Assembly (NCBI GenBank): GCA_031551825.1
Contig: JAVBNB010000068.1
Location: 7,477-71,476, forward strand
DNA length: 64,000 nucleotides
Origin: Tannerella sp.
Lineage (GTDB): Bacteria; Bacteroidota; Bacteroidia; Bacteroidales; Tannerellaceae
Reading direction: 5' to 3'
Shown: positions 3,533 to 27,885 of the stretch, piece by piece
How positions within the stretch are numbered: the first letter of the stretch is position 1
How the letters are laid out: every line of letters begins with the position of its first letter
Program-made: the position numbers and the translations under genes
The notes under the pieces: model-generated
Database searches by the model: none
What the model saw: only the letters and a program-made list of their open reading frames with translations
What the model was told of the DNA's origin: nothing

Positions 3533-4699
3533 TTTGGAGCCGTTTCCTTTGTTTTTTCGCCATTCGTGACGCCAGAGATGTATGTCTTCGGGGCCGATAA
3601 ATGGTTTTAGTTTCCGTTCTTCTTTGGATGGAGCCGGCGGTAATTGTCCGGGCTCGTTCTGATACCAGTAAGCGACGGTAGCTATGTCCAGTGTGAGGTT
3701 GTTGTTGTGTCCATGTTCGATGGAGCCTTTTAGGTTTGTTTCGAAAAAGATGGGATCGTTGATGAAAAAGCGGTAAACATGGGTGCGTCCGAGCCACCCG
3801 ATGTCGTCATTTACACGAGGATAGCCGAAATAGGGATGTGAGAATTTTTCCTTCGGGCACCATGATGTGTTGAAGAAGTCTTCGGTTCCTGTTCCTATCA
3901 TGGATGGTATGGTTTCATCATCGATGTACCACATGTCGTCTCCTTCGCCATACCACATGGGCGTTGGACAATGTACGTAATAATTGATACCGATGAAATG
4001 TCCTTTTCCTTTGATATCAGCAAAAATATAGTTATCGGCTCCGTCTTTGTTTTCTCCTTGCGGCCCTAATTTACTCCATTCGTTTTCCCCGTCAGGGAGT
4101 GCATCTGTCAGTTCGTGGTTATACCAGGCATGGAAACGTCCCAGATCAGCGGGTAGTTTTTTCATTTCTACATAATCTACATAGAAATAAAAGGCGTTGA
4201 TGTCTTTATCCGACTGGTTTTCAATCTCAATCTTAGCTCCTGTAGCAAAAGGCATACTGAAATAAGAACTAAGGCCTGTCCCATTTCCAGGGCCGGATGA
4301 GAGAGGCAGGGATGCATAATTGTATTGTTCGTTCCAACCCTGACCGAAAAATGGACCGATGGGCGATTCTACAGAGGGGTAGGATTTGTTATCCCAGTAC
4401 ATACGCAGGATGATATCGTTCCGGTTTAGGTCATGGGGGCCAGGTGACATGGTTATCCAGATATGATTGATAATGCCGGCGCTTTTGATTTCCGCAATAG
4501 TGCGTGTTTCACCCGGTTTGATTTCGCTGAAATGGTCGCGATAGTTTCCCGTTACGTCGTAACTACTGATGCGGCGGTTCCGCATTCCGTTCTGAATTTT
4601 GGCCAGCCCGGATAATTCTCCCGGGAGGTTTCCTTGTGCAAGTCCGTCGGAGAAAAAAACGAACAGACTACAGGCTAATGTTAGGATTGCTTTTTTCAT
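3515..4699 (-). CDS. DUF2961 / GH172-like secreted protein
   Basis: 394 aa with signal peptide MKKAILTLACSLFVFF. The conserved block IGTGTEDFFNTSW is recalled from the DUF2961 family. Confidence 0.55.
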   Translation of the reverse strand: MKKAILTLACSLFVFFSDGLAQGNLPGELSGLAKIQNGMRNRRISSYDVTGNYRDHFSEIKPGETRTIAEIKSAGIINHIWITMSPGPHDLNRNDIILRMYWDNKSYPSVESPIGPFFGQGWNEQYNYASLPLSSGPGNGTGLSSYFSMPFATGAKIEIENQSDKDINAFYFYVDYVEMKKLPADLGRFHAWYNHELTDALPDGENEWSKLGPQGENKDGADNYIFADIKGKGHFIGINYYVHCPTPMWYGEGDDMWYIDDETIPSMIGTGTEDFFNTSWCPKEKFSHPYFGYPRVNDDIGWLGRTHVYRFFINDPIFFETNLKGSIEHGHNNNLTLDIATVAYWYQNEPGQLPPAPSKEERKLKPFIGPEDIHLWRHEWRKNKGNGSKLWGNE

Positions 4700-15498: not shown

Positions 15499-16293
15499 AT
15501 GGAAGACAGGTATAATCGTAATATTCTTATCGAAAATGTTGGAGAGAAAGGGCAATTGAAGTTAAGAGCTTCAAGAGTGCTTGTGGTAGGAGCGGGTGGA
15601 TTAGGCTCTCCCGTGCTTTTTTATCTGGCCGCCGCCGGGGTTGGTACAATTGGGATTGTTGATGATGATGTGGTAAACATCACCAATCTTCAACGTCAGA
15701 TCCTCCATTTTACGAGCGATCTTGGACGACGGAAAACTGAATCCGCACAGGAAAAACTTACCGCCTTGAATCCGGATGTGAAAATCGTTATTTATAATTG
15801 CAGGTTTTCGAATGAAAACGCGGAAAAAATAATTAACGGTAATATGGAAGGTGATACAGTCGGGCTGGCTTCGGATATGTCTTGTTTGAGATCCGGTGGC
15901 GAATATGACTTTGTGGTTGACTGTTGTGATAATTATGCGACAAAATTACTGATCAATGATGTTTGTGTAAGGATGAAAAAGCCTTATTCGCATGGCGCGG
16001 TGGTGGCTTTGCGTGGAGAAGTCATGACGTATATTCCCGGCTCCGCATGTTACCGGTGCGTCTTTGACACCCCGCCGGAAGACGGTGCGTTGCCTACTGC
16101 TTCGCAAATCGGAATTTTAGGCTCGGTCGCTGGGATCGTCGGAAGTCTACAAGCGACCGAAACGATTAAATATTTGGCCGGAATAAATGATTTAATAACA
16201 AATCGTATACTGATAGCAGAAGCAAATGTTATGAATTTTATTTCCTTAAAAGTGAAAAAAAGAGATTCGTGTATGTGTGGGGTTATTGAATAA
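15499..16293 (+). CDS. thiF: ThiF/MoeB-family adenylyltransferase
   Basis: 264 aa with VVGAGGLGSP Rossmann motif, DCCDNYATK, and cysteine pairs CYRC / CMC. Confidence 0.75.
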   Translation: MEDRYNRNILIENVGEKGQLKLRASRVLVVGAGGLGSPVLFYLAAAGVGTIGIVDDDVVNITNLQRQILHFTSDLGRRKTESAQEKLTALNPDVKIVIYNCRFSNENAEKIINGNMEGDTVGLASDMSCLRSGGEYDFVVDCCDNYATKLLINDVCVRMKKPYSHGAVVALRGEVMTYIPGSACYRCVFDTPPEDGALPTASQIGILGSVAGIVGSLQATETIKYLAGINDLITNRILIAEANVMNFISLKVKKRDSCMCGVIE

Positions 16294-16436
16294 AAGAACT
16301 GTACATCCTGTTTCCTAACATTAATATTACGGCAGCCTGATGTTCCCTTGATCTCTCTTTCAGTATTTTGCAAAATTGTTCTTTCGGCATGACTTCTAAC
16401 TAAGTATATCGGAGTTTAAAATATGAATGCTCGTTT

Positions 16437-16955
16437 TTATACATCAACAATAGCAGTCTCAATCAATTTGAAATTCAATTTTTCAATTGGTTGAAAGCCA
16501 TGCACAATAGGTTCAGGCAAATAACTTCTAATTATATCAAAAGCCCCCGCAATATCTTCTGGCGTCTCAATCGTTTTAGTTTTATTTGAAAAGACACACA
16601 ATCTTTCAGTAAAACTATCTATGAAAGATTTAATTGAAATTGTGTTGGAAAGATGTAACAACGCATTATGCAACTGTTTCCTCGCATCGTTTATTTTATT
16701 TTTAGACGAACTGCTTAATGACAATTCATTTAAGATAAAAAATGTATCACCTTCTAAATGATAGACAATAAAATCACATTTCTTTAATTCCAGTGCTTTA
16801 ATAACGTCATCGGGTTGCTGATTAAGAAAGTGCTCATAATCAATAACCGCAATAATCTTATTATTAGGATTATTATAGGTTGCACTTCCTGTTCCAAGTG
16901 ATTGTTTTATTGCAGGTTTTTTATCTTGAATATCGAAATTGGTATCATCTATCAC
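16437..16955 (-). CDS. hypothetical protein (possible PD-(D/E)xK-like motif, weak)
   Basis: 172-codon ORF in ~30% GC DNA, unlikely by chance. It has no ATG; the only start is GTG at 16955 and there is no internal Met. IAVID...ALELKK could be a D..ExK nuclease motif, but this is very tentative. Confidence 0.45.
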   Translation of the reverse strand: MIDDTNFDIQDKKPAIKQSLGTGSATYNNPNNKIIAVIDYEHFLNQQPDDVIKALELKKCDFIVYHLEGDTFFILNELSLSSSSKNKINDARKQLHNALLHLSNTISIKSFIDSFTERLCVFSNKTKTIETPEDIAGAFDIIRSYLPEPIVHGFQPIEKLNFKLIETAIVDV

Positions 16956-17051
16956 ATCGGATTTGAGACTAAGCTATGGATATAAAAAACAGTTTCTGTA
17001 GTAGAGCTTCTATCTTTTAATTTTTACTTTTGATAGAAAAATCTAAAAAAT

Positions 17052-17459
17052 ATGGCAGAAATATTTTATGATATGTCCCATCTGACAACGGATGAACTTC
17101 GGGAACTGTTTACGTCCTACCGAAAACTCGGATGGATAGATTACGAGTATGAAGTACTGGATGAGAGCCACCCTCCTATACAGACTCTTTCGGATGCGGA
17201 GGTTATTCTGAATATTCAAGCGGGAGATGAACGAAATTATTTTGTATTCATGCTCAACCATGAAGACGAGGAAGACGGCGTAATGATTGGCTTTGGGCTA
17301 AATTACCAAGAATATTTTTCAGCGTACCTGCACCTTTCGCCTAAGTATCTGAAAGAACTAATCGAAAAGTATGCGCTGGTAAGTAAAGCAACCAATGCAG
17401 AGAACCTAACGGTCGAACAGTTCTTAATAAAGCAGGCAAATGACCTTCCGATGAATTAA
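17052..17459 (+). CDS. hypothetical acidic 135-aa protein
   Basis: ATG-initiated ORF, divergent from 16437-16955 (96-nt spacer) and convergent with the HEPN gene. No motif recognised. Confidence 0.5.
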   Translation: MAEIFYDMSHLTTDELRELFTSYRKLGWIDYEYEVLDESHPPIQTLSDAEVILNIQAGDERNYFVFMLNHEDEEDGVMIGFGLNYQEYFSAYLHLSPKYLKELIEKYALVSKATNAENLTVEQFLIKQANDLPMN

Positions 17460-17531
17460 ACAAGTCAATGATTTTAGACGGGATGTGAAATTATTATTAG
17501 CACCTACTATTCTCAATAAAAATTTGCTTTT

Positions 17532-18233
17532 TTACTGTACCGTTTCGTTTTTCTTTGCTTCTATTCTGTCAAACTTTACTTTCAATGCTTGAATTTTACT
17601 TTGCAAATTCCAAGTTTCTGTCTCTGTCACGAGTCTTTCTAACTCTGTCATATGGAAATAGAAGTCATTGAAATGTGCTTTAGTAGGGCTTTCAATTAAG
17701 TCTTCTACTGCCTGACTTAGTTTCTCATAGACGCTGAACAAAATATCTATTTGAACAAAATCAAGATTTTCTATTCGCGTGGTTGTTGCCTCGTTTGTTG
17801 CCGTATTGTCATTATTCAAAGCTACTACCCATTGTCCATGTGCAATTTTATTTCTTAACTGGCTTGGCTCGATAACAAATTTATTGATGTGTCTTGACAG
17901 TATCAATTTTTTATTTTGAACTTCGCCAGCATTTGCAATGCTATTTGTTCGACTAAATGCCAACGCCATACATTTCGTCCATTTTTGTTCTAAGTTCCTT
18001 TCGTTACTTATTTGTCGTATTTCACCCTCACTAAAACCGTATGGAGTGTGAATAACCTTAAGAAAAGAAAGCTCGGCAAATGAAGAGTATAGCAAAGCAT
18101 ACAACTTAGTCAACGCACTGAATGCAGAGTGGTCGTTTCTTTTGATAGATTGGTTGAACAATCTTTTTATATTTTTTCGTTGTTTATTCAGTTCCCTTAA
18201 ATTAACAACGCTTGCCCTGTAAATGTCAATCAT
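17532..18233 (-). CDS. HEPN-domain protein (Abi-like putative RNase)
   Basis: 233 aa. The Rx4H motif in SQLRNKIAHGQW is the HEPN catalytic signature seen in AbiD/F-type and related abortive-infection RNases. The protein is all-helical in character. Confidence 0.65.
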   Translation of the reverse strand: MIDIYRASVVNLRELNKQRKNIKRLFNQSIKRNDHSAFSALTKLYALLYSSFAELSFLKVIHTPYGFSEGEIRQISNERNLEQKWTKCMALAFSRTNSIANAGEVQNKKLILSRHINKFVIEPSQLRNKIAHGQWVVALNNDNTATNEATTTRIENLDFVQIDILFSVYEKLSQAVEDLIESPTKAHFNDFYFHMTELERLVTETETWNLQSKIQALKVKFDRIEAKKNETVQ

Positions 18234-18240
18234 ATCACAA

Positions 18241-18349
18241 AAATAAAAAAGGGCTTGTAATGAACACTTTGTTAGTCTGCATTACAAGCCCGGAGTTGAA
18301 CCGGGAACCTACCATTTCTGGTCCGCTTTGCCTTATTAAGCTACAAGTC
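18241..18349 (-). ncRNA. tRNA-like leader/small RNA ending in an intrinsic terminator, immediately upstream of the HEPN gene
   Basis: Minus-strand RNA reads GGACUUG-UA-GCUU-AAUAAGGCA-AAGC (acceptor 5' strand plus D arm), ACCA-GAAA-UGGU stub, CCCGG-UUCAACU-CCGGG (T arm), then the 12-bp hairpin GGGCUUGUAAUG/CAUUACAAGCCC and UUUUUUAUUUUU. It has no normal anticodon arm or 3' acceptor strand. Confidence 0.6.
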
Positions 18350-18353
18350 CGTT

Positions 18354-18361
18354 GCAAAGAT
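18354..18361 (-). promoter_or_regulatory. -7 box TATCTTTG driving the tRNA-like leader
   Basis: The reverse complement of CAAAGATA matches TAnnTTTG and ends ~5 nt upstream of the GGACUUG 5' end. Confidence 0.5.
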
Positions 18362-18842
18362 AATGTTTTTGTTGTATTGTATCTCACTTTACTCTTTTTT
18401 CTCATATTTTTTTGTGTAGAATATCCCCAAAGCTTATTTTCAGCACATATACTGTAACAAATTATCGCTTAGGTAATACCTTTTAGAAAAGAAAGACAAG
18501 TAGAAAGGCTACTTCTCCCTACCTGTCTATACTACATTAATCAAAATTGTTTACTAATTTCCTTTTACCCCTTCTTTCTCGTCCTTATCTGTCTGCTCAT
18601 TGTTGAAGGTAAAAGAAAGAGGAAATTCTCTCCCAAACGAATCGAAGAACACCACCTCTATATTATGGGCATCTTCCGATAGCGAACGAAAGTAGAGCCG
18701 GAAATAACTATCTGTTATCTCGTATGCATCATTAGGCAACTGTTATAACACCTACTATAAACGTTTTTGATTAATCGTTTATTATCAGGTGATTAATAAA
18801 GTGACTTTTTATAAAATAGTTATAAGACTATTAATAAGGTGA

Positions 18843-18876
18843 GAAAATAATAAAGGCTACCAAAATGATAGCCTTT
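18843..18876 (-). terminator. Intrinsic terminator after the type-II tRNA-like gene
   Basis: Minus strand reads AAAGGCTA-TCATTTTGG-TAGCCTTT followed by ATTATTTT. Confidence 0.55.
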
Positions 18877-18900
18877 GAAAATATATCGTATTATGAATAT

Positions 18901-18987
18901 TCAGAAGAGGGGATTCGAACCCCCGGAACCCTTTACAGGTTCACCTGATTATCAGTCAGGCGCCTTAAGCCTCTCAGCCACCTCTCT
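18901..18987 (-). tRNA. Type-II (long variable arm) tRNA-like gene with Ser-like body, anticodon loop CUGAUAA and imperfect acceptor stem
   Basis: AGAGAGG-TG-GCT-GAGAGGCTTAA-GGC-G-CCTGA-CTGATAA-TCAGG-TGAACCTGTAAAGGGTTCC-GGGGG-TTCGAAT-CCCCT-CTTCTGA. By hand-fold only 5 of 7 acceptor pairs form (1:72 is A/A, 2:71 is G/G), and the anticodon would be GAU. Confidence 0.5.
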
Positions 18988-18992
18988 AAGTG

Positions 18993-19000
18993 CAAAGATA
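18993..19000 (-). promoter_or_regulatory. -7 box TATCTTTG driving the tRNA-like gene
   Basis: The reverse complement of CAAAGATA ends 6 nt upstream of the tRNA-like 5' end. Confidence 0.5.
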
Positions 19001-19037
19001 ATAATATATATTGTAAATCAAATAATATCACTATAAA

Positions 19038-19616
19038 ATGGATAAAATATCACCTTTCACAACAATTGGAATCGACAGACAGACAAACAAATTAATAGAT
19101 AAGTTATGTAAACGTTATTCGCTGAAAAAGGGTGAAATAGTAAGAGTGGCTTTTGGGTAGATAGATAAGGCACAGATCAATCCCGCCGAAGCCCCCGAAT
19201 CGGTCAAAGCTGAACTTTCCAAAATCAACAAACGGCAGGATGATATTATTCGCTTCATCCGAAACTACGAAGAACAGGAACTTAACCCGATGATACGGGC
19301 GACCAATTCGATAGCCGCCCGCTTCGATGGAATAGTGAAGGCTTTGGATACGTTTGTTCTTTCGCAGTTGGAGAAGAACCAAGAGAAATACAATGCTGTG
19401 TTGCAAAGAATCAGCGACAAATTCGGCGAACATGCCGACGTGATAAATGGTCAGGGTAAACACATCGGCGCATTAAAAGAAACACAGAAAAAAGACAATG
19501 CTAAACTTTTGAAGTTAATCGGTCTTTATGCGGATTTGGCAACGTGTGGAGTAATGGACGGTAAACGCAAAGAGAATCTGAAAGCGGAAATTTACCAATT
19601 AATCAATCCCGAATAA
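19038..19616 (+). pseudogene. Relaxosome accessory/mobilization protein (MobA/BfmA-like) interrupted by an in-frame TAG
   Basis: ATG at 19038 gives MDKISPFTTIGIDRQTNKLIDKLCKRYSLKKGEIVRVAFG, then TAG at 19158-19160. The same frame continues to 19616 (193 codons in total). No ATG/GTG/TTG occurs between the TAG and 19290. Confidence 0.5.
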
Positions 19617-19619
19617 GCG

Positions 19620-20270
19620 ATGAACATAGATTTCCCGCCACCGTCAAAAGGAACGTACAATAATGCAGGCAGCAGCCGACAGTTAGCCAATTATTGCGAG
19701 CACGAAGATTTGCAACGGATGGAACAGGGAATCTATACCGAAGGTTTTTTCAATCTCAATCAGGATAATTTGTACAAATCCCAAGTTGTAAAAGACATCG
19801 ACGGGAATATTGGGCAATTACTAAAGACTGATGCCAAGTTTTATGCCGTCCATGTCAGCCCATCGGAAAAGGAACTGCAAGCGATGGGAAGCACCGAGCA
19901 GGAACAAGCCGAAGCCATGAAACGGTATATTCGTGAAATGTTCATTCCCGAATATGCCCAAAACTTCAACAAAGGACTATCAGCAGAGGACATAAAGTTT
20001 TACGGCAAAATCCATTTCAACCGTAACCGTTCCGATAATAAACTGAATATGCACTGCCATTTGATTGTGAGCCGTAAAGACCAATCGAACAAAGTCAAGA
20101 TAAGCCCGCTTACCAACCATCGAAATACCAAGAAAGGCGTTATTACAGGAGGTTTTGACCGCACAGTCCTATTTGAGAATGTAGAAAAAGGATTTGACAG
20201 GCTGTTCGGCTACCATCGGCAACTATCTGAAACGTTCGAGTATTGCAACACTATGAAAAAGGCAGCATGA
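19620..20270 (+). CDS. Relaxase-like mobilization protein (MobB/BfmB-like)
   Basis: 216 aa. RSDNKLNMHCHLIVSRKD resembles relaxase motif III (D..HxH). It sits directly after the accessory gene with a 3-nt gap. Confidence 0.5.
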   Translation: MNIDFPPPSKGTYNNAGSSRQLANYCEHEDLQRMEQGIYTEGFFNLNQDNLYKSQVVKDIDGNIGQLLKTDAKFYAVHVSPSEKELQAMGSTEQEQAEAMKRYIREMFIPEYAQNFNKGLSAEDIKFYGKIHFNRNRSDNKLNMHCHLIVSRKDQSNKVKISPLTNHRNTKKGVITGGFDRTVLFENVEKGFDRLFGYHRQLSETFEYCNTMKKAA

Positions 20271-20590
20271 CAGACAAGCTACGGATGCAGGAACGGGAAC
20301 TGAACGTCTCCAAACAAGATTTTGCTGGCGAAAAGAAAAAAGAGAAAGAAGATTTGCATGTAGACAGGTATGCGGATAAGCAAGCAGAATCGACTGGAAG
20401 CAAGTTCCCGAACAAGCAAGAAAGCAAATTTGAAAACGATATTGAAAATAAACAAGATTCCAATTCAACCAATTTAGGGTTATCTTCCGTATTTTCAATT
20501 TTACCATCGGCTACTGATATTAATCCAATTGACGAACAGCAACAGCCGAAACCCAAGAAAAAGAAGAAACAAAGACCAAGATTAAGTTAA
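20267..20590 (+). CDS. Lys/Glu/Gln-rich low-complexity protein (third mobilization gene?)
   Basis: The ATG at 20267 overlaps the relaxase stop (ATGA). 107 aa ending in KPKKKKKQRPRLS. The ORF track extends it to a TTG at 20243. Confidence 0.4.
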   Translation: MTDKLRMQERELNVSKQDFAGEKKKEKEDLHVDRYADKQAESTGSKFPNKQESKFENDIENKQDSNSTNLGLSSVFSILPSATDINPIDEQQQPKPKKKKKQRPRLS

Positions 20591-20612
20591 TAAATTTTCG
20601 ATTTATATTGTT

Positions 20613-20720
20613 CCGTAAGTTATTTCCCATGCTTTTCCGGTTATTTCCCGCTCATAGCTTCCCAGCCGTTTGGAGAGGCGGAAGCCCGCGAGAATAACCG
20701 GAGCATGAGAATAACTTCCG
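20613..20720. repeat. Imperfect inverted repeat built from four GTTATTTCCC-like units (operator / oriT candidate)
   Basis: Left arm is CCGTAAGTTATTTCCCATGCTTTTCCGGTTATTTCCCGC (20613-20651). Right arm is GCGAGAATAACCGGAGCATGAGAATAACTTCCG (20688-20720), its near reverse complement. Confidence 0.6.
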
Positions 20721-20809
20721 TCAATTTTACGGTGGCATGAAAGCCGCTTGCAAATAGCCATTATCCTTACCCTTAAACATAATCTATTGGAAACAAAGAG
20801 ATAAATTCT

Positions 20810-20840
20810 TTTGTGTAGTCATATAATTTTAATAAATTTG
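20810..20840 (+). promoter_or_regulatory. Promoter (-33 TTTG, -7 TAAATTTG) of the HTH-ATPase-ParB-Dam operon
   Basis: TTTG at 20810-20813 and TAAATTTG at 20833-20840, spaced 19 nt. The ATG lies 20 nt downstream. Confidence 0.5.
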
Positions 20841-20859
20841 CATTTTGTGCTAATTTAGA

Positions 20860-21048
20860 ATGAAAACAAAGACGATTAATAGGCTCAAAGCAGTACTTGC
20901 AGAAAAGCAAGTAGCTAACAAGTGGCTTGCAGAGAAGATTAATATAAGCACTACTACTGTTTCGCGCTGGTGTACGAACAAGACGCAACCTTCGCTCGAA
21001 ACGTTGGTTGAGATTGCTGAAATTCTTAAAGTGGATGCAAAGAATTAA
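20860..21048 (+). CDS. XRE/Cro-C1-type helix-turn-helix transcriptional regulator
   Basis: 62 aa. LKAVLAEKQVANKWLAEKINISTTTVSRWCTNKTQPSLETLVEIAEIL is a textbook HTH_3 pattern. Confidence 0.8.
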   Translation: MKTKTINRLKAVLAEKQVANKWLAEKINISTTTVSRWCTNKTQPSLETLVEIAEILKVDAKN

Positions 21049-21082
21049 TCGTTTCAACAAAGAAAAATTAACAAGTAATATT

Positions 21083-22630
21083 ATGATAATTAACGATGTC
21101 CACATCAAGCAATTTAGGGGATTTAATGATGTGCAGTTTGCTTTAGGAAAGAATCTGACCGTAATTGCAGGCCAAAACGGAACTCAAAAAACCACAGTTT
21201 TGGGAATGCTTAGTCAGCCTTTCTCTATAACGGACAAAGGAAATCCGTTGTTTGGGGAAACACCGCTTTGTGGAGGTAATTATCGTTCATCTTTTGCTGA
21301 AAAATTTAAATTATCAGAAGCGTTTGATAAAGCACAAAGTCATGAATGGACATTAAATTTAAATAATGCAACGGAGCCTGAATTTACAGTGGAAAGTATC
21401 AGGCGAGATGCATCATCCGAAGCAATTCGTTTTTGGCAAAAAGGGAAACGCTCTAAAGGGTCGGGCTATATTCAACTTCCTGTAATATACTTGAGTTTGT
21501 CACGTCTATTCCCAATAGGAGAAGATACCGGTATCAGTTCAAGTACAGACATCTCTCTTACACCTGATGAATTTAAATTCTACAAGGATTGGCATGATAA
21601 GATTCTAATTATACCTGATGGACAAATGACCAGTGTTGATTACTTGAAAAGTAAACAAAAGAATACACTTGGTGCCAATACTTCATACTATGACTGGAGA
21701 ATGAACTCGGCCGGGCAGGATAATATCGGTAAAATCTTGCTGGCTATCCTATCATTCAAACGTCTAAAAGAAAAGCATAGAGATTCTTACACAGGTGGAA
21801 TTTTAGCGATAGACGAACTGGATACAACGTTATATCCTGCTTCCCAATTAAAATTAGTAGAGGCTTTGCGAAAATTCTCATCCCAATACAACATACAAAT
21901 TGTTTTCACGACACATTCCCTTACTATTTTGGAGGAAATGTGTGTACACCAAGAGAATCCGAAAATTCCGGGACAAGTAAAGGTTATATATTTACAAAAG
22001 GAGGATAGTCATGTTAAGGCTATTGAGGGTATTTCAATTGTTGAGATTAAGAATAAACTTAATGTAACTCTGTCTCCAAAACAAAAAACGAAGAAAATAT
22101 CTGTATTTGCAGAGGATAAAGAAGGTGAAATTTTTGCTAAGGCAGTGCTAAAAAGAAGAACTTCTTCTTTACAGTTTATTGAATGCACAATGGGATGCAG
22201 TAACTATATTGAGTTAGCAAAAAAGAAAATAGATGGTTTTAAATATCTGCAAAGTATTATCATTTTAGACGGTGATGTCAAATCCGAAAGTTCCAAAATG
22301 CGCGAATTGAAAAAATATAAGAACTTTCTTGTATTACCGGGAACAGAATCCCCCGAAAGACTTATTGCGAAATTTTTGTACAACCTACCCGAAGGTTCAC
22401 CACTTTGGGATAAAATTTATAATGGATATACAAAACAACTTGTTTTTCGTGACCATTCTTTAAGAGAAATACAAGCCGATAGAGAAAAAGCAAAAGCATG
22501 GTTTAATGCTCAAAAGCAATATTGGGGCAGAGGCTGTGCAGGTGTTATAAACTTGTGGATTTCAGAGAATCAGGAGGAAGTTTGCAATTTTATCAACGAA
22601 TATGACCGACTGATACAAAAATATATTTAG
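21083..22630 (+). CDS. OLD-family-like protein: ABC-type ATPase with C-terminal TOPRIM/DUF4435-like domain
   Basis: 515 aa from the ATG at 21083. P-loop GQNGTQKTT, signature-like NSAGQ, Walker B GGILAIDELD, H-loop VFTTHS. The C-terminal part has ISVFAEDKEGE ... IIILDGD, fitting the TOPRIM Glu and DxD. Confidence 0.65.
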   Translation: MIINDVHIKQFRGFNDVQFALGKNLTVIAGQNGTQKTTVLGMLSQPFSITDKGNPLFGETPLCGGNYRSSFAEKFKLSEAFDKAQSHEWTLNLNNATEPEFTVESIRRDASSEAIRFWQKGKRSKGSGYIQLPVIYLSLSRLFPIGEDTGISSSTDISLTPDEFKFYKDWHDKILIIPDGQMTSVDYLKSKQKNTLGANTSYYDWRMNSAGQDNIGKILLAILSFKRLKEKHRDSYTGGILAIDELDTTLYPASQLKLVEALRKFSSQYNIQIVFTTHSLTILEEMCVHQENPKIPGQVKVIYLQKEDSHVKAIEGISIVEIKNKLNVTLSPKQKTKKISVFAEDKEGEIFAKAVLKRRTSSLQFIECTMGCSNYIELAKKKIDGFKYLQSIIILDGDVKSESSKMRELKKYKNFLVLPGTESPERLIAKFLYNLPEGSPLWDKIYNGYTKQLVFRDHSLREIQADREKAKAWFNAQKQYWGRGCAGVINLWISENQEEVCNFINEYDRLIQKYI

Positions 22631-22648
22631 ATTTAAAGCCTGAAAGTA

Positions 22649-23905
22649 ATGATGGAGCAAGAAATTCAAATATTGAAGTTGAAGGATTTAGTCTTGTGGA
22701 CGGAGAATCCCAGAGACCCTATTGATGAAAATGCGACAGACCAAGATATTGTCAATAAAGCAATGGAAGACAAGTATTCCAAATGGTCGTTACCGAAGTT
22801 AGCAAAAGAAATGGGGAACCATTACGATTTTAGTGAGCTTCCAACTGTTGTATATCATGGCAAAAAGCCTGTTGTTTATGACGGGAATCGACGGATAATA
22901 CTTGGGAAGGTAAAACATAATCTTGTTACTGTTGCAGGCAAAGACAATATAGACATACCTGATATTCCGGCTGAAATTCCGTGCAACGTCTGTTCTAAGC
23001 AAATCGCATTGAAAAATGTGTATAGAAAGCATAGTGATTCTGGTTCATGGCATCCGCTTGAAAGGGATATATTTCTTCATAAATTCATGGGAGAGAAAAA
23101 AAGTACTTTTTTGATTATTGAAGAAAATACGGGGTTAATTACAGCCAACCCTCATTTGAATCAACGATTTGTTAAGGATGAGATTTTGAGAGAAGATATT
23201 TTATCCGAAATGGGATTTGACATTAAAGGCAATAAGTTGCGGAGCGTTCATGACGAAAATCAGGCACTTTCCATTTTGCACAATTTGTCTCAAAAAATCC
23301 AAGATAAAGAAATAACCACCCGTCATAATAGAGGGAAAGTTATTGATGTATTGGATAAATCCATGCGGAAAATCATTGAAAAAAATAAAGGAAGTCAATC
23401 ATATAATAATGTAAATATCCAATTTACTAATCCGACAAATACAGATAAAGAAACGGAAAAGAAACAGCGTCAAACAAAGCGTACTCAAAAAAAGGAAGAT
23501 GAATTGTTTGGGAAAAAACTTTATCTGAAATCGGGTGATGTAAATAACTTATATAGGGATATTTCCGACCTATATCAGATTTATTTGAATAATAAATCTG
23601 TATTATCTCATTCGTTTCCCAGTCTTATCAGAATGTCATTACGACTATTGTGTGAATCTGCTGCAAAAGATATTAGTGTTACATTGGATAAATATCTGAA
23701 TACTCATTTTGCCAATGCAAAAAAGAATTTAGACCAAGATATTAAAACAAGTTTGTCCAATCAAAATGTAACGGAGAAAACAATCCTTCAATTATTGCAT
23801 ACAGGTGCGCATAATTATCAAGCGGCAAATAACCTGCCGCAAACCTATGCTATTTCTGTTATTCTTGGTGAAATGCTTACATTAACGCATGGAAAGGAAT
23901 ACTAA
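22649..23905 (+). CDS. ParB/Srx-like N-terminal domain protein with uncharacterised C-terminal region
   Basis: 418 aa. LKLKDLVLWTENPRDP and VVYDGNRRIILGK resemble the ParB N-domain (NPR box and the DGxxR motif, cf. DGQHR/DGQQR of DndB/GmrS). A Lys-rich linker is followed by a ~130-aa helical C-terminus ending in LLHTGAHNY. Confidence 0.6.
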   Translation: MMEQEIQILKLKDLVLWTENPRDPIDENATDQDIVNKAMEDKYSKWSLPKLAKEMGNHYDFSELPTVVYHGKKPVVYDGNRRIILGKVKHNLVTVAGKDNIDIPDIPAEIPCNVCSKQIALKNVYRKHSDSGSWHPLERDIFLHKFMGEKKSTFLIIEENTGLITANPHLNQRFVKDEILREDILSEMGFDIKGNKLRSVHDENQALSILHNLSQKIQDKEITTRHNRGKVIDVLDKSMRKIIEKNKGSQSYNNVNIQFTNPTNTDKETEKKQRQTKRTQKKEDELFGKKLYLKSGDVNNLYRDISDLYQIYLNNKSVLSHSFPSLIRMSLRLLCESAAKDISVTLDKYLNTHFANAKKNLDQDIKTSLSNQNVTEKTILQLLHTGAHNYQAANNLPQTYAISVILGEMLTLTHGKEY

Positions 23906-24766
23906 ATGAACACATTTTATTCACCTTTACGATATCCGGGAGGAAAGAATTGCATCTTTTCTTTTATGTCCAAGTTGTTTTATGAAAATAATTTGCTCGG
24001 TGTCAGTTACGCGGAACCTTATGCAGGTGGCGCAGGGCTGGCCTTACGACTTTTATTTGAAGAATATGTAAATAAAATATACATCAATGACTTTGATAGG
24101 TCTATCTATGCTTTTTGGCATACCATTATTAATGATTCCGAAGAGTTTTGCAATTGGATTGCCAATGTAGATATTTCTGTTGAAAATTGGCATATATACA
24201 AGGATATTCAAAGAATTTCGAATGAATATGATTTATTCGAATTAGCAAAATCTACTTTCTTTCTTAACAGAACAAATGTATCGGGGGTAATTAAGGGTGG
24301 TATTATTGGCGGTGTTGAACAAAGAGGAAAATATAAAATAGACGTTCGATTCAATAAGGAAGATTTAATCAATAAAATACGGAAGATAGCCAGTTTTCGG
24401 AATCGCATCTTTGTATCTAATCTTGACGGGCTTGCGTTTATTAAAAAAATGGACAAAAAGAGAGAGGATATTTTTATTTATCTCGACCCACCGTACTACA
24501 AAAAAGCATCAGATTTATACATGAACTTTTACTTGGAAAAAGACCATGAAAATTTATCAAGACATGTCCGAAATATAAATAAGCGATGGATGATTTCCTA
24601 CGATAACCAAGATTTCATTCTTAACCTATATGCTCAAGAAAGAAAAGTGTTATATAACCTTTCCCAATGCGCATCCAATAGAGTTGGGAATGAGATTTTA
24701 ATTTTTTCAGAAAGGATAAATTTTGCAGATTCGATGAATCATTTGAAAGCACCAGTCTTGATATAA
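23906..24766 (+). CDS. D12-class (Dam-like) N6-adenine DNA methyltransferase
   Basis: 286 aa with PLRYPGGKN, motif I EPYAGGAG and motif IV IYLDPPYY. Its ATG directly abuts the stop of the preceding gene. Confidence 0.85.
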   Translation: MNTFYSPLRYPGGKNCIFSFMSKLFYENNLLGVSYAEPYAGGAGLALRLLFEEYVNKIYINDFDRSIYAFWHTIINDSEEFCNWIANVDISVENWHIYKDIQRISNEYDLFELAKSTFFLNRTNVSGVIKGGIIGGVEQRGKYKIDVRFNKEDLINKIRKIASFRNRIFVSNLDGLAFIKKMDKKREDIFIYLDPPYYKKASDLYMNFYLEKDHENLSRHVRNINKRWMISYDNQDFILNLYAQERKVLYNLSQCASNRVGNEILIFSERINFADSMNHLKAPVLI

Positions 24767-25037
24767 TTTGTTTACTATACAATGAGCCAAAGCCTTTCCT
24801 TTCAGAACAACTCTGTATACGGCTTTAAATTTCCGCCAAGTAATGGAAAAATGCTTCCAACTTTAGGTAAATTGAATAAAAAAACGATATTTACAGTGAG
24901 TTATTTGAGGAAATGCAGCGTAAAACGCAGAAATCGCACGGTTGCCAAATCGTTACCTCTCCCGCCGAAAAAGCACGCTTAAAGACTTCTATTCAACAAT
25001 TTATCTCTCAAAGATAATTTTATAAAATAAAATGAGC

Positions 25038-25072
25038 GCCCCCGGCTTATTAAAGGGAAATAAGCCGGGGGC
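25038..25072 (-). terminator. Intrinsic terminator of the GH78 gene / PUL end
   Basis: 14-bp stem GCCCCCGGCTTATT / AATAAGCCGGGGGC. On the minus strand it is followed by GCTCATTTTATTTTAT. Confidence 0.8.
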
Positions 25073-25110
25073 ATTGGTTATGATGAAAAAAACAAGTAAG
25101 TAGTTATCTT

Positions 25111-27885
25111 TTAAAAATTGACTTCGAAATTATAATTACCGGAGCCCACTTCATATACGGTATGGTTACCTTCTTTTTTTAGGAATTTAACTCCTTCTGC
25201 CGCAGAGGTTTTTTTGCCGCTTTCTAAAACTTCGGCATCGTTTTTTGCAGGAATATATACGATTGCAGTTGTATTTCCAGGTATGGTAATTTTCCATGAG
25301 AATTTAGTTCCTGTTTTTTTCCATGCGCTTTTGATTGTTCCGTGAACCGAATGATAAGATGCTGTTACATAATTCAGGCCGTTTGCCGGATATGGGCGCA
25401 TGGTGATTTTCTCAAAACCGTTGCTGCCGGAAGCGTTTCTGATGCCTGCCAGGTATTCATAATACCAGACCAGCAAATCTCCCAGTAACATCACATGATT
25501 GTGCGAATTCATAGCGGGGTCGGCCGTTTTACCGTTCCATAGCTCCCAGATTGTGGTAGCTCCGTTTTCAATCATATAACCCCAACTCGGGTAGTCACGG
25601 TTTGTTGTGATTTTATAGGCAAGATCGGCACGCCCGTAGTCAGACAATCCGCGCATCAGCCATTGGATTCCGACCAGGCCTGTACTCACGTGACTGTTAA
25701 AATCCTTTTCCGTTTTGTTTGCTATATTGGCAAAAACTTTTTCTTCGTAGCCTTCTGGGACCATCCCGTAGCATAATGACAGTAAATTGGCTGTTACCGT
25801 ATTATTACTGTATTGTGCCGTCTCTTTATGGAAGAACTTCCTGTTGTAAGCGTCTTTTATAACTGCCGCTTCATTGGCAAATGCTTTGGCTTCGCCTGTT
25901 TTACCTTGAAGTGTGGCGAAACGTTCCAATAGATAAAGCATACGATAATAGAATGAGGTTGCGAGAAGTGTGCCGTCTGTTTTTCGCGCCGGGTCCATCG
26001 AGTGGATTAATTCAGGAGATTCGGGAGGCATACACCAGTCACCGTAAATATCTTTTGTCATAATGTGATCTTTCATATATGTTTTACGCATATAAGACAT
26101 CCATTTCTTCATGGATTTATAGTGTTTCTTTATGGGTTCGGGATCACCATACTGTTCATAGATCATATTTGCAATAGTCAGATAGGCGGCGGGCCATGTC
26201 ATGTTATCGCCGTAAAAAGCCCAGTATGCAGGCGCTACATCGGACAGACTTCCATTCTCCAGTTGGGTTTGCTCTATATCGTCCAGCCATTTGACATATA
26301 AGTGGTAGTTATCGAACACAAAACTTTCACCGTGTGAGCCTACGGCGCGATCTCCTAACCACCCCATCCGTTCGTCACGTTGCGGACAATCTGTCGGCAT
26401 TCCGCGATAATTGCCGCGTATGCCCCAGTATGCATTTTTGTAAATCTGATTGATGGTCGGATCGGAGGTTTCGAATTTCCCTGTGATTTCCATTTCATCA
26501 TAGACTATTTTTCCTTCAAAATCATTAACCGTAGGAACCCCCGGAAAGCCGGTAATTTCGACGTAGCGGAATCCGTGATAGACGAAAGATGGTTCCCAGT
26601 ACTCTTCCGTTGAGCTTTTTAATGTATATATATCCGTGACCAATGCGCCACGGATGTTATCCATATACAATGTGCCGTCTTCTTTTAAGACTTCTGCAAA
26701 ACGTAGCGATACTTTATCTCCTTCTTTGCCTTTTACCTTCATCCTTATCCAGCCGACCATGTTTTGTCCCATGTCAAGTATATATGTGCCTTTTTTCGGT
26801 TCACTGATATTTACCGGCGTTATTGTTTCCATTATCTTAATATTGGGATTGAGTTGCGCCTCTAATTTGCCGCCGGGAGGCAGAACGGTTTCGGCCTGCA
26901 ACCAGGACTGGTCATTAAATCCGGTTTTATCCCATCCCGGCATTTCTTTCCGGGCGTCATATTCTTCACCATCGAATTCATTGTTGGCTGTAATCGGACC
27001 TTCGGCGGTGACTTTCCATGAATTATCGCTGGTGATGACCTGTTTGCTTCCATCCGGATAATCAAGTTCGAGTTGGAGTATCATTTTGGGATATCCGAAA
27101 TGTTTGACTTCCGCTACCGGACCGTGGGGAACTCCCGGCGGACGCATGGAGAAGAAACGTCCGTTTCCTAAGACCGTACCGATAGCATTTGAACCTTCCT
27201 GTATGATATCCGTCACATCGAACGTATTGTATTTTACGGATTTCGTATAATCCGTTGGAGTAGGTGATAATTCCTGATTTCCGATTTTTTGTCCGTTTAT
27301 AAACAGTTTGTATAGGCCCAGTCCGGAAATGAAGACGGTTGCTTTTTCCGGTTTTTGGGTGGCGGAAAATTCTTTCCGGAAATAGCGTGCGGCAAGACGG
27401 CTATTGGAGCGGTCGAAAACATTCCCTTTGAACATTCGGTCTAATCCGATCCATCCGGCTTGCCAGTCGGTTTCGTTCAGTAGTCCGATTGACCATGATG
27501 CCGGTTTGCTCCACGGTGAATCTCCCTGATTGGTTTTTATCTTCACTTTCCAGAAACAAACATCGCGGCTTTTTAACGGTTTACCGTTATATTCGACAAG
27601 TATCGAGGTATCGGATTCTTTTTCCGAATTCCATAAATCACCATTATCTGCGTTTAGTTTCTCTAATGACGATGCGACGAGGATATGGTAAGATTTTTGC
27701 TTGAGTCCACGTTTGTCGCTGTTTAATTCCCAGCTCAGACGCGGATTGGTGATACCTATACCGCTGGGATTGTTCAGAAATTCACAACGAAGATTACTTA
27801 TGTTGACTTCCGTATTATTTTTACATGCAGATAAAAGTAATATAGAGCATAAGAGAGGGAATAATGAGAGGCAATTTCGTTTCAT
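25111..27885 (-). CDS. GH78 alpha-L-rhamnosidase
   Basis: 924 aa with signal peptide. Family block MPTDCPQRDERMGWLGD and the six-hairpin C-terminal region ...GATTIWELW...NSHNH. Confidence 0.88.
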   Translation of the reverse strand: MKRNCLSLFPLLCSILLLSACKNNTEVNISNLRCEFLNNPSGIGITNPRLSWELNSDKRGLKQKSYHILVASSLEKLNADNGDLWNSEKESDTSILVEYNGKPLKSRDVCFWKVKIKTNQGDSPWSKPASWSIGLLNETDWQAGWIGLDRMFKGNVFDRSNSRLAARYFRKEFSATQKPEKATVFISGLGLYKLFINGQKIGNQELSPTPTDYTKSVKYNTFDVTDIIQEGSNAIGTVLGNGRFFSMRPPGVPHGPVAEVKHFGYPKMILQLELDYPDGSKQVITSDNSWKVTAEGPITANNEFDGEEYDARKEMPGWDKTGFNDQSWLQAETVLPPGGKLEAQLNPNIKIMETITPVNISEPKKGTYILDMGQNMVGWIRMKVKGKEGDKVSLRFAEVLKEDGTLYMDNIRGALVTDIYTLKSSTEEYWEPSFVYHGFRYVEITGFPGVPTVNDFEGKIVYDEMEITGKFETSDPTINQIYKNAYWGIRGNYRGMPTDCPQRDERMGWLGDRAVGSHGESFVFDNYHLYVKWLDDIEQTQLENGSLSDVAPAYWAFYGDNMTWPAAYLTIANMIYEQYGDPEPIKKHYKSMKKWMSYMRKTYMKDHIMTKDIYGDWCMPPESPELIHSMDPARKTDGTLLATSFYYRMLYLLERFATLQGKTGEAKAFANEAAVIKDAYNRKFFHKETAQYSNNTVTANLLSLCYGMVPEGYEEKVFANIANKTEKDFNSHVSTGLVGIQWLMRGLSDYGRADLAYKITTNRDYPSWGYMIENGATTIWELWNGKTADPAMNSHNHVMLLGDLLVWYYEYLAGIRNASGSNGFEKITMRPYPANGLNYVTASYHSVHGTIKSAWKKTGTKFSWKITIPGNTTAIVYIPAKNDAEVLESGKKTSAAEGVKFLKKEGNHTVYEVGSGNYNFEVNF

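Follow-up and report, generated by a model that had tools for sequence, protein, structure and literature searches.

Introduction

PD-λ-5, a named and validated anti-phage system, came from a functional selection in Escherichia coli ECOR7, where it was listed as 'ParB/HEPN, methyltransferase'; its phage protection was among the broadest in that study, and its cloning needed an mrr-deleted host (Vassallo et al. 2022, Nat Microbiol). Proteins combining ParB and HEPN in operons with DNA methylases had been noted in the 2013 HEPN survey. Here we describe a locus in a 64,000 nt stretch of DNA (the window) from Tannerella sp. contig JAVBNB010000068.1, in which a diverged PD-λ-5 pair (genes g3 and g4) shares an operon with a gene for an OLD-like ABC ATPase fused to a TOPRIM domain (g2) and a small XRE-family helix–turn–helix (HTH) gene (g1). 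All coordinates count from the start of the window. We consider it fairly probable that the locus is a horizontally mobile, methylation-dependent anti-invader cassette, organized around one methylase as a hub that takes ParB-like partners, OLD-like partners or both.

Three further groups of systems are relevant. OLD-family proteins have been sorted into four classes by context: the solitary P2 Old and TsOLD (Class 1), GajA with a helicase (Class 2, Gabija), retron-Eco8 (Class 3, retron I-B) and the AriA/AriB pair of PARIS (Class 4). In MADS (mad1–8; Maestri et al.), a methylase (mad2) is joined by the ABC ATPase mad3 and the TOPRIM protein mad4; the system discriminates self by methylation, and phages can escape it epigenetically. 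Menshen consists of NsnA (ParB-DUF262 and ParBDB), NsnB (ABC ATPase and DUF3696) and NsnC (inPIN and a nuclease, sometimes TOPRIM). Some Menshen loci adjoin methylases, and its authors suggest that the ParB domains target unmodified DNA.

Gene content of the cassette

The four open reading frames (ORFs) occupy 20860–24766 of the forward strand, separated by 34, 18 and 0 nt:

20782–24770, + strand: whole cassette and mobile unit, from the promoter to 4 nt beyond the g4 stop codon (blastn of its closest relative, locus L001, against the window)
20860–21048, + strand: g1, 62-aa XRE-family HTH protein (Pfam HTH_3, HTH_26)
21083–22630, + strand: g2, 515-aa OLD-like ABC ATPase with TOPRIM domain (Pfam, PADLOC, PHROG, AlphaFold2 (AF2)/Foldseek)
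22649–23905, + strand: g3, 418-aa diverged PD-λ-5A-like protein (PADLOC, hhalign, AF2/Foldseek)
23906–24766, + strand: g4, 286-aa D12-class N6-adenine DNA methylase (PADLOC, Pfam)

The stop codon of g3 directly abuts the ATG of g4, and the corresponding A and B genes are likewise adjacent in the surveyed loci. An initial annotation, made from the sequence of the window, had described these four genes with the same coordinates and gaps, and the motifs it quoted are all present in the translations. Its domain assignments (XRE HTH, ABC ATPase with TOPRIM, ParB-like N-terminal domain and D12 methylase) are borne out by Pfam, PADLOC and Foldseek. It had proposed a candidate undescribed four-gene system. 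That may hold for the linkage of g2, which appears to be unnamed, while g3 and g4 belong to the named PD-λ-5 by PADLOC and hhalign; the locus is better described as PD-λ-5 extended by a methylase-coupled OLD-like nuclease, and is not wholly undescribed.

Genes g3 and g4 are a diverged PD-λ-5 pair

The assignment is clearest for g4. It matches the PADLOC model PD-Lambda-5_B (PDLC04018) at 1.3e-111, with residues 1–279 aligned to positions 1–281 of 291, along with Pfam MethyltransfD12 (4.1e-14) and the NCBIfam dam subfamily (1.6e-16, below the cutoff). The motifs PLRYPGGK, EPYAGGAG and DPPY are invariant across the g4 methylase clade, and g4 is a Dam-like methylase of the α-group.

For g3, the PADLOC PD-Lambda-5_A match is split between residues 9–84 (3.2e-11) and 171–308 (3.7e-5). 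The 25 PADLOC models for the A protein cover g3 only partially, the best reaching 3.2e-11 over 76 residues, and no Pfam family matches. Most g3 homologues begin one residue later than g3. When 35 homologues were aligned by hhalign to a canonical PD-λ-5A profile that includes two E. coli prophage copies, the match had 98.1% probability and an E-value of 1e-13, over residues 2–226 only. On these profile matches, g3 and g4 together are a diverged member of PD-λ-5.

The AF2 model of g3 has a predicted local distance difference test score (pLDDT) of 73. Its N-terminal α/β domain finds its best PDB matches in ParB–CDP and ParB–CTPγS dimers and in Noc; for the ParB CTPase dimers the Foldseek probability is 0.97 (E 6e-3). 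The fold is thus ParB-like, as in NTPases or nucleases of that kind. A likeness to the DGQHR domains of DndB and GmrS, suggested by the initial annotation, stands at the level of fold, with no Pfam match and with ParB CTPases as the best structures. The ParB/Srx-like N-terminal domain and a middle domain span residues 1 to approximately 250, followed by a disordered linker rich in Lys, Glu and Gln (approx. 261–320) and a helical bundle (approx. 320–414). NPR, (E/D)GNRR, K87, H128 and W134 are invariant across all subfamilies. Sequence and profile searches of the PDB with g3 gave nothing useful, and tblastn of g3 against phages gave no match.

The window and the published system thus share a two-gene core on mobile elements, in which the gene for a ParB-like protein precedes that for a D12-class N6-adenine methylase. 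They differ in that g3 belongs to a diverged subfamily whose C-terminal domain does not align, and in that the window adds the OLD-like ATPase-TOPRIM and XRE genes to the same operon, neither of which figures in the published definition; the E. coli PD-λ-5 copies that we inspected lack g2.

One viral homologue of the A protein has an unusual form. Vibrio phage ValB1MD-2 (locus L032, 7467–9019) encodes PD-λ-5A as two adjacent ORFs of 252 and 265 aa, which match the N- and C-terminal halves of model PDLC03995; a frameshift would account for this, or else the ParB-like component naturally exists here as two proteins.

Gene g2 encodes an OLD-like ATPase-TOPRIM protein

The start of g2 is taken as the ATG at 21083, since all 16 aligned homologues begin with MIIK, MLIK or similar; a longer, TTG-initiated ORF from 21008 is a purely mechanical call, which the homologue starts do not support. 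The protein consists of an ABC ATPase (residues approx. 1–330) with a large conserved insertion (approx. 46–200), and a TOPRIM and helical domain (approx. 335–515). Pfam matches are to AAA_15 (2.3e-17) and AAA_21 (2e-10). The best PADLOC model is the retron ATPase-Toprim_I-B (1.2e-20, residues 225–425), followed by the ATPases AriA, PtuA and GajA, with the AriA model covering the ATPase part only. Over its full length, g2 matches phrog_3940, a phage family of unknown function, at 1.9e-112.

The AF2 model, built with 46 homologues, has a mean pLDDT of 87.9. Its C-terminal segment has the order β1 (339–343)–E344, α, β2, α, β3 (391–395)–D396-G-D398, α, β4. The top Foldseek match in the PDB is 6p74, the Class 1 OLD of Thermus scotoductus (E 2.6e-12, 537 columns), followed by the retron-Eco8 entry 9lpa_B, PtuA and GajA. 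The global TM-score against 6p74 is 0.32 and the identity to solved OLDs is 12–16%; the low TM-score probably reflects a different relative placement of the domains in g2. Across 46 sequences, the Walker A motif GQNGTQKT (with K36), the NSAGQ signature, the Walker B motif IDE (244–245) and the H-loop TTHS (with H278) are invariant. E344 and the D396xD398 pair are also invariant in the family, and the ATPase and TOPRIM motifs are retained in phage homologues of 27–32% identity. Sequence and profile searches of the PDB with g2 returned ATPase-motif matches only; because such searches were uninformative, the fold assignments of g2 and g3 rest on AF2 and Foldseek. Taken together, the model and the motifs support g2 as an OLD-like ABC-ATPase/TOPRIM protein with intact catalytic residues, in line with the TOPRIM fold initially proposed for its C-terminus.

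The Walker A motif (residues 30–38) is atypical: an invariant Gln stands where a Gly before the Lys is usual in ABC ATPases, and in distant homologues this position is Ser or Gly.

The g2 family is large. A word-indexed search at E ≤ 1e-10 gave 1,564 clusters, the best 120 of which are 58–93% identical, and an exhaustive search at E ≤ 1e-30 gave 440 clusters (at 50% identity), mostly with end-to-end alignments. In the source records these relatives are named only 'AAA family ATPase' or 'ATP-dependent nuclease', and neither NCBIfam (June 2026) nor PADLOC v2.0 holds a dedicated model for the g2 or g3 subfamily.

The best structural matches of g2 (TsOLD 6p74, retron-Eco8 9lpa_B and GajA) place it close to the OLD family; what sets it apart is that its partner in the genome is a DNA methylase, in some loci together with a ParB-like protein. 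None of the four published context classes accommodates it. Class 1 is at odds with a methylase of one clade adjacent to g2 in every informative locus (26 of 26, see below). Class 2 requires a helicase akin to UvrD, PcrA or Rep, which the cassette lacks, the neighbours of g2 being a ParB-like protein and a methylase. For Class 3, we found neither a reverse transcriptase ORF nor a retron RNA; in an Rfam scan of 16000–25200 the matches were limited to a tRNA and one weak cis-regulatory hit that stayed under the threshold. Class 4 does not apply, as the ATPase and TOPRIM of g2 are fused and not split as in AriA and the DUF4435 protein AriB. The OLD-containing systems of a 2024 survey do not include g2 either.

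Gene g2 is linked to one methylase clade

Partners were called with home-made hidden Markov models on stop-to-stop ORFs, together with ORF maps, tblastn and PADLOC. A g2-anchored scan of a one-genome-per-species collection gave 31 loci, of which five are cut by contig ends and 26 are informative. These come from Bacteroidota, Alphaproteobacteria, the planctomycete Loosdrechtia, Leptospiria, Vibrio owensii and the archaeon Methanococcoides. In each of the 26 informative loci, a g4-clade methylase lies no more than 4.5 kb away, and one of the five cut loci shows a truncated methylase fragment at its end. A PD-λ-5A gene is also present in 20 of the 26, so that genes 2–4 do co-occur elsewhere, as the initial annotation had supposed; in the other six, g2 has the methylase as its sole partner. 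The three genes occur in the orders g2-A-B, A-B-g2 and A-g2-B. Dozens of unrelated genomes share this gene set, which is more than chance would give.

The association extends to phages and prophages, where homologues of g2 down to 27% identity still adjoin such a methylase. The P2-like Vibrio phage ValB1MD-2 has a g2 homologue of 47% identity that is convergent with the split A gene and the methylase. In Citrobacter phiNP the homologue (32% identity) precedes a methylase that lacks annotation, and in Streptococcus prophages a 27% homologue ('Lp2 protein 4') is followed by a methylase and an integrase. Among complete E. coli genomes, 85 of 5,426 hold an adjacent pair annotated as 'AAA family ATPase' and 'DNA adenine methylase'; in strain JJ1886 (ST131) the pair lies between a prophage integrase and glaH. 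PD-λ-5-type pairs without g2 are found in lambdoid and P2-like prophages of E. coli.

A ParB-anchored scan of viral sequences, made with a broad PD-λ-5A alignment and confirmed against the diverged window sequence, gave 2 loci, and scans anchored on the methylase were used instead. They gave the following partners:

IMG/VR viral contigs, clade methylase, 58 loci: A only 31, g2 only 20, both 2, neither 5 (4 at contig edges)
Metagenome contigs, clade methylase, 79 loci: A only 46, g2 only 8, both 12, neither 13 (mostly cut)
Metagenome subset with at least 3.6 kb on both sides, 20 loci: A only 14, g2 only 1, both 4, neither 1
Viral contigs, Dam-like methylase outside the clade (same viral scan), 22 loci: neither partner 22

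Over the 137 loci of the viral and metagenome scans, the clade methylase thus stands with A only in 77, with g2 only in 28, with both in 14 and with neither in 18.

These counts bear on the simplest alternative, that the cassette holds two independent systems, a PD-λ-5 pair and a solitary OLD of the Class 1 type, which only happen to lie side by side in a defence island. In its favour, two genes suffice for PD-λ-5, Class 1 OLDs are by definition solitary and genes for defence tend to cluster; the weak co-variation of g2 with A and B described below also agrees with it. Against this, the methylase next to g2 is of one specific clade in all 26 informative loci, and g2 is found at none of the 22 methylases outside it. 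In the window, the gaps around g3 are 18 and 0 nt, there is a single promoter and the cassette moves as a unit, and elsewhere pairs of g2 and methylase lie between an integrase and core genes with no other defence gene. We regard mere neighbourhood as quite unlikely.

Two Vibrio loci have a different partner. In V. owensii (L030, 9596–14258) and Vibrio phage 10N.286.54.E5_PE002 (L035, 3986–8428), a clade methylase stands with a HerA-like ATPase and a protein of 459–491 aa. The HerA-like partner gives weak PADLOC matches to mad8/HerA, and in V. owensii the set is convergent to a g2 homologue.

The A-B pair is exchanged while g2 is conserved

Where all three genes are present (17 loci), the pairwise identities of A closely follow those of B (Spearman ρ 0.90), whereas the co-variation of g2 with A (0.53) and with B (0.47) is moderate. 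Locus L002 illustrates the pattern: relative to the window its g2 is 80% identical, while its A protein, from a different PD-λ-5A subfamily, is 24% and its B protein 41% identical. The nearest methylase relative has the same type of partner in 69 of 82 cases, leaving 13 visible switches. A and B behave as a matched pair, exchanged together against a g2 that stays conserved. Far more conserved than A and B, g2 shows no sign of sequence-specific adaptation; its high conservation over swapped A-B pairs speaks against g2 itself reading the target.

The same pattern could be explained in another way, with g3 and g4 as a restriction-like first line of defence and g2 as an abortive-infection (Abi) sentinel in the style of PARIS, PrrC or P2 OLD, in which an ABC ATPase sensor is joined to a TOPRIM tRNase; on inhibition of that first line or on aberrant phage DNA, it would fire and kill or arrest the cell. 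According to current reports, P2 OLD acts as a tRNase when triggered by DNA substrates, and the TOPRIM of PARIS is reported to be a tRNase too; OLD-ABC/TOPRIM modules recur as back-ups beside BREX and restriction-modification (R-M) systems; and the strong conservation of g2, which is not exchanged along with the more variable A and B, is what a generic sentinel would show. The authors of PD-λ-5 themselves spoke of 'RM+Abi' (Vassallo et al. 2022). However, the linkage of g2 to the methylase is just as tight where the ParB-like part is missing (six genome loci, 28 methylase-anchored loci and 85 E. coli genomes), and because the ParB-like 'R' component is absent there, these loci have no first line to guard. 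A sentinel would also not need a methylase of its own. We think a sentinel role unlikely, though it deserves more weight than mere neighbourhood.

The cassette moves as a unit

Locus L001, to which the cassette is most closely related, comes from a metagenome-assembled genome of the class Bacteroidia. Blastn against the window shows 89% DNA identity exactly over 20782–22949 and 23588–24770; the shared segment starts 78 nt upstream of g1 and ends 4 nt beyond the g4 stop codon. The flanks are unrelated, with an aminotransferase gene in L001 versus a MobB relaxase gene and a rhamnosidase gene in the window, and the L001 copy has no mobilization genes. Because exactly 20782–24770 is shared between different surroundings, the four genes and their promoter travel together as one unit.

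The L001 copy is itself altered. Its g3 (3318–3932) has an in-frame deletion of residues 101–313 (junction GKDN|NK) that joins the ParB core to the C-terminal bundle, with the remainder 93–96% identical; its g1 (1495–1700) holds stop codons; its g2 and g4 are intact. This cassette is either a natural mini-variant or at an early stage of decay.

That the cassette is found in these settings also speaks to an alternative already raised in the initial annotation, in which the genes serve establishment or anti-restriction for a mobile element: the Dam-like protein would pre-methylate, the ParB-like protein would act in maintenance and g2 would be unrelated cargo. The cassette does sit in an AT-rich island beside a MobB relaxase gene, and plasmids and phages commonly carry ParB-like proteins and methylases without a cognate nuclease. 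Yet the homologous A and B pair is a validated anti-phage system, the same cassette occurs without mobilization genes in L001 and also at moron sites of prophages, no ParA accompanies the ParB-like protein, and the co-variation of A with B is that of a cognate pair sharing a specificity. An independent OLD-like gene is at odds with the linkage data, and we give this explanation very little credence. Both it and the neighbour explanation fit the linkage data poorly.

A proposed methylation-gated mechanism

The reading that we prefer, a methylase hub with ParB-like and OLD-like partners, suggests how the cassette might work. Paired with a ParB-like protein, the hub methylase would form PD-λ-5; paired with an OLD-like ABC-ATPase/TOPRIM protein, it would form a two-gene module that has no name; and with both partners it would give the three-component form of the window, to which g1 would add a facultative XRE regulator. 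In this scheme, g4 would methylate a specific motif on resident DNA, and methylation would gate the effectors. From the mrr-deleted host that PD-λ-5 needs, a motif other than GATC is predicted. As the cognate partner of g4, g3 would be a sensor or effector for unmethylated DNA. The response would be executed by g2 as an ATP-driven TOPRIM nuclease that interacts functionally with g4 and distinguishes self from non-self through the methylase or the methylation state. We infer this dependence on the methylase or its mark because g2 is never without the methylase in informative loci and is often with the methylase alone. An arrangement like that of Type I or Type III systems, with the methylase providing recognition, would fit. 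The target of g2 could be DNA, as in restriction, or tRNA, as reported for P2 OLD and PARIS.

A stronger version of this scheme is that the ATPase-TOPRIM and the PD-λ-5B-clade methylase form an autonomous, unnamed, R-M-like class of defence, in which the methylase both targets and self-marks and g2 takes the place of the restriction subunit. It would add one more context class, linked to a methylase, to those of the OLD-type proteins. We offer it tentatively, as rather less probable than the hub itself. The window would then be such a module merged with PD-λ-5, one methylase licensing two effectors, and the HerA-like partner in Vibrio suggests that effectors may be plugged in more generally. 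The pairing of g2 with the methylase appears to be unnamed, although a prior description in comparative genomics is possible.

Several observations weigh against the hub reading. The A and B genes are sufficient for defence in E. coli, as shown for the ECOR7 copy, so the pair does not require g2 (Vassallo et al. 2022). The tracking of the methylase phylogeny by g2 is weak and would also fit a loosely associated neighbour, and many metagenome contigs are cut, making the partner proportions approximate. In g2 we recognized no methyl-reading or sequence-recognition domain. No curated OLD or TOPRIM model matches it in Pfam (E ≤ 1) or NCBIfam; its assignment to the TOPRIM group is based on its fold and motifs and on the PADLOC retron I-B model. 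Finally, g3 has no Rx4–6H motif and no HEPN fold match, and its hhalign alignment stops at residue 226. With motif, fold and profile alignment all without support, we do not endorse a HEPN label for its C-terminus; the original HEPN call for PD-λ-5A rested on HHpred probabilities of 35% (DUF4145) and 8% (RiboL-PSP) (Vassallo et al. 2022).

Comparison with MADS, Menshen and restriction-modification

The closest functional precedent is MADS, which is missing from the OLD-family contexts that the initial annotation listed, none of them pairing the nuclease with a ParB-like protein and a methylase: mad2, mad3 and mad4 bring a methylase together with an ABC ATPase and a TOPRIM protein. MADS and the window share a methylase, an ABC ATPase and a TOPRIM domain, and the small mad1 is classed by its authors with widespread regulators. 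However, MADS has eight genes, with an R-M-like methylase and specificity subunit and a mandatory mad6–8 that includes a HerA-like ATPase; none of the four cassette genes matches mad6–8 in PADLOC. The match of g2 to MADS3 is marginal (NCBIfam, 3.7e-4, N-terminus only), and the ATPase and TOPRIM of the window are fused. The methylation-linked defence logic of the initial annotation is kept in our preferred reading.

Menshen also brings together a ParB-like protein, an OLD-type ABC ATPase and a TOPRIM nuclease in one operon. The differences are that g3 has no DUF262 match in Pfam, that the window has no NsnC or other third effector gene, and that the NsnB model matches g2 only weakly and partially (3.7e-15), g2 having a TOPRIM domain of its own and not DUF3696. 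The methylase is constant in loci of the window type, whereas it is an occasional neighbour in Menshen.

The layout also recalls Type II/III R-M systems with C proteins, where a methylase and one or more nuclease genes form an operon headed by a small XRE gene with a palindrome over its promoter; the pairing specific to a methylase clade and the co-variation of A and B resemble cognate R-M pairs. Here too there are differences. We identified no PD-(D/E)xK, HNH or other classical restriction fold and no superfamily 2 helicase in g2 or g3, the candidate nucleases are instead the TOPRIM domain and the ParB-like protein, and the HTH gene is absent from most related loci.

Regulation and surroundings of the cassette

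The XRE gene g1 matches Pfam HTH_3 (7.8e-11) and HTH_26 (5.5e-10). Orthologues lie upstream of g2 in loci L003 and L007, a decayed copy in L001, and other XRE types, confirmed by Pfam and on the same strand, in L008, L013 and L023; no upstream HTH gene was seen in most other surveyed loci. In all, Pfam supported a same-strand XRE gene immediately upstream in three surveyed loci as an orthologue of g1 and in three more as another type. Because an XRE gene is directly upstream in only a minority of loci, and these genes are of at least two unrelated types, we treat g1 as a putative facultative regulator and not a core component. The initial annotation had likened it in size and position to R-M controller proteins.

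Three sequence features flank the genes:

20809–20841, + strand: candidate Bacteroidetes-type promoter, TTTG (−33) and TAAATTTG (−7, 20834–20841), consensus match only
20833–20857, no strand: inverted repeat TAAATTTGCA/TGCTAATTTA, 10-nt arms and 5-nt spacer, overlapping the −7 box
25038–25072, no strand: GC-rich hairpin approximately 270 nt downstream of g4, before the convergent rhamnosidase gene, terminator-like on both strands

The TTTG near 20810 lies approximately 20 nt from TAAATTTG, itself 19 nt ahead of the g1 ATG, and both are conserved in L001. The promoter of its own with which the cassette had been credited is present as a match to the Bacteroidetes consensus. A scan for sigma-70 promoters showed no excess of sites and is uninformative for this type of organism. 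The inverted repeat, also kept in L001, is a candidate operator for the g1 protein; the surrounding sequence is AT-rich, so it could have arisen by chance. The hairpin has 14–15 pairs, nine of them GC, and lies outside the segment common to L001; it is possibly a terminator shared by the cassette and the rhamnosidase gene.

The GC content is 0.32–0.37 over 21–25 kb versus approximately 0.42–0.45 in the flanks, and the ORF at 19620–20270 is a MobB-family relaxase/DUF5712 gene (profile positions 3–223 of 289, below the NCBIfam cutoff), in agreement with the AT-rich island with mobilization genes of the initial annotation. A Lys/Glu-rich ORF (20243–20590) overlaps the relaxase ORF in another frame. 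A frameshift in the relaxase gene is possible, which would leave a mobilizable element in decay. A search of 15800–25300 gave no direct repeats and no integrase ORF was seen in approximately 16–25 kb, so the larger island is undefined and only the boundary of the 4-kb cassette is firm.

The flanking ORFs 16437–16955, 17052–17459 and 17532–18233 have no significant match in Pfam, NCBIfam or PADLOC. The last, on the − strand, encodes 233 aa and contains LRNKIAHGQW, an Rx4H motif as in HEPN RNases; from this motif it may be a further defence or toxin gene of the island. A 91-nt tRNA-like gene (18899–18989, − strand) also lies inside the AT-rich island. ARAGORN calls it tRNA-Ile(GAT), and the Rfam tRNA model gives 39 bits over positions 3–68 of 71; its long variable arm and Ser/Leu-like body are unusual with an Ile anticodon. 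Possible explanations are a tRNA that serves as an attachment site, a pseudo-tRNA or a tRNA borne as cargo by the mobile element.

Implications

The result extends the catalogue of defence systems and the classification of OLD proteins; it is not a new principle. PADLOC v2.0 would under-call loci of this kind, with g3 partly covered by its models and g2 by no dedicated one. The triggers and targets of OLD-type proteins are debated (DNase or tRNase), and a context in which methylation could separate self from non-self would be simple to dissect by experiment. The two-gene form of ATPase and methylase in E. coli and Streptococcus prophages, generically annotated in the records that we inspected, offers a tractable model. 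If the linkage reflects function, PD-λ-5 would be only one face of a larger family built around one methylase clade.

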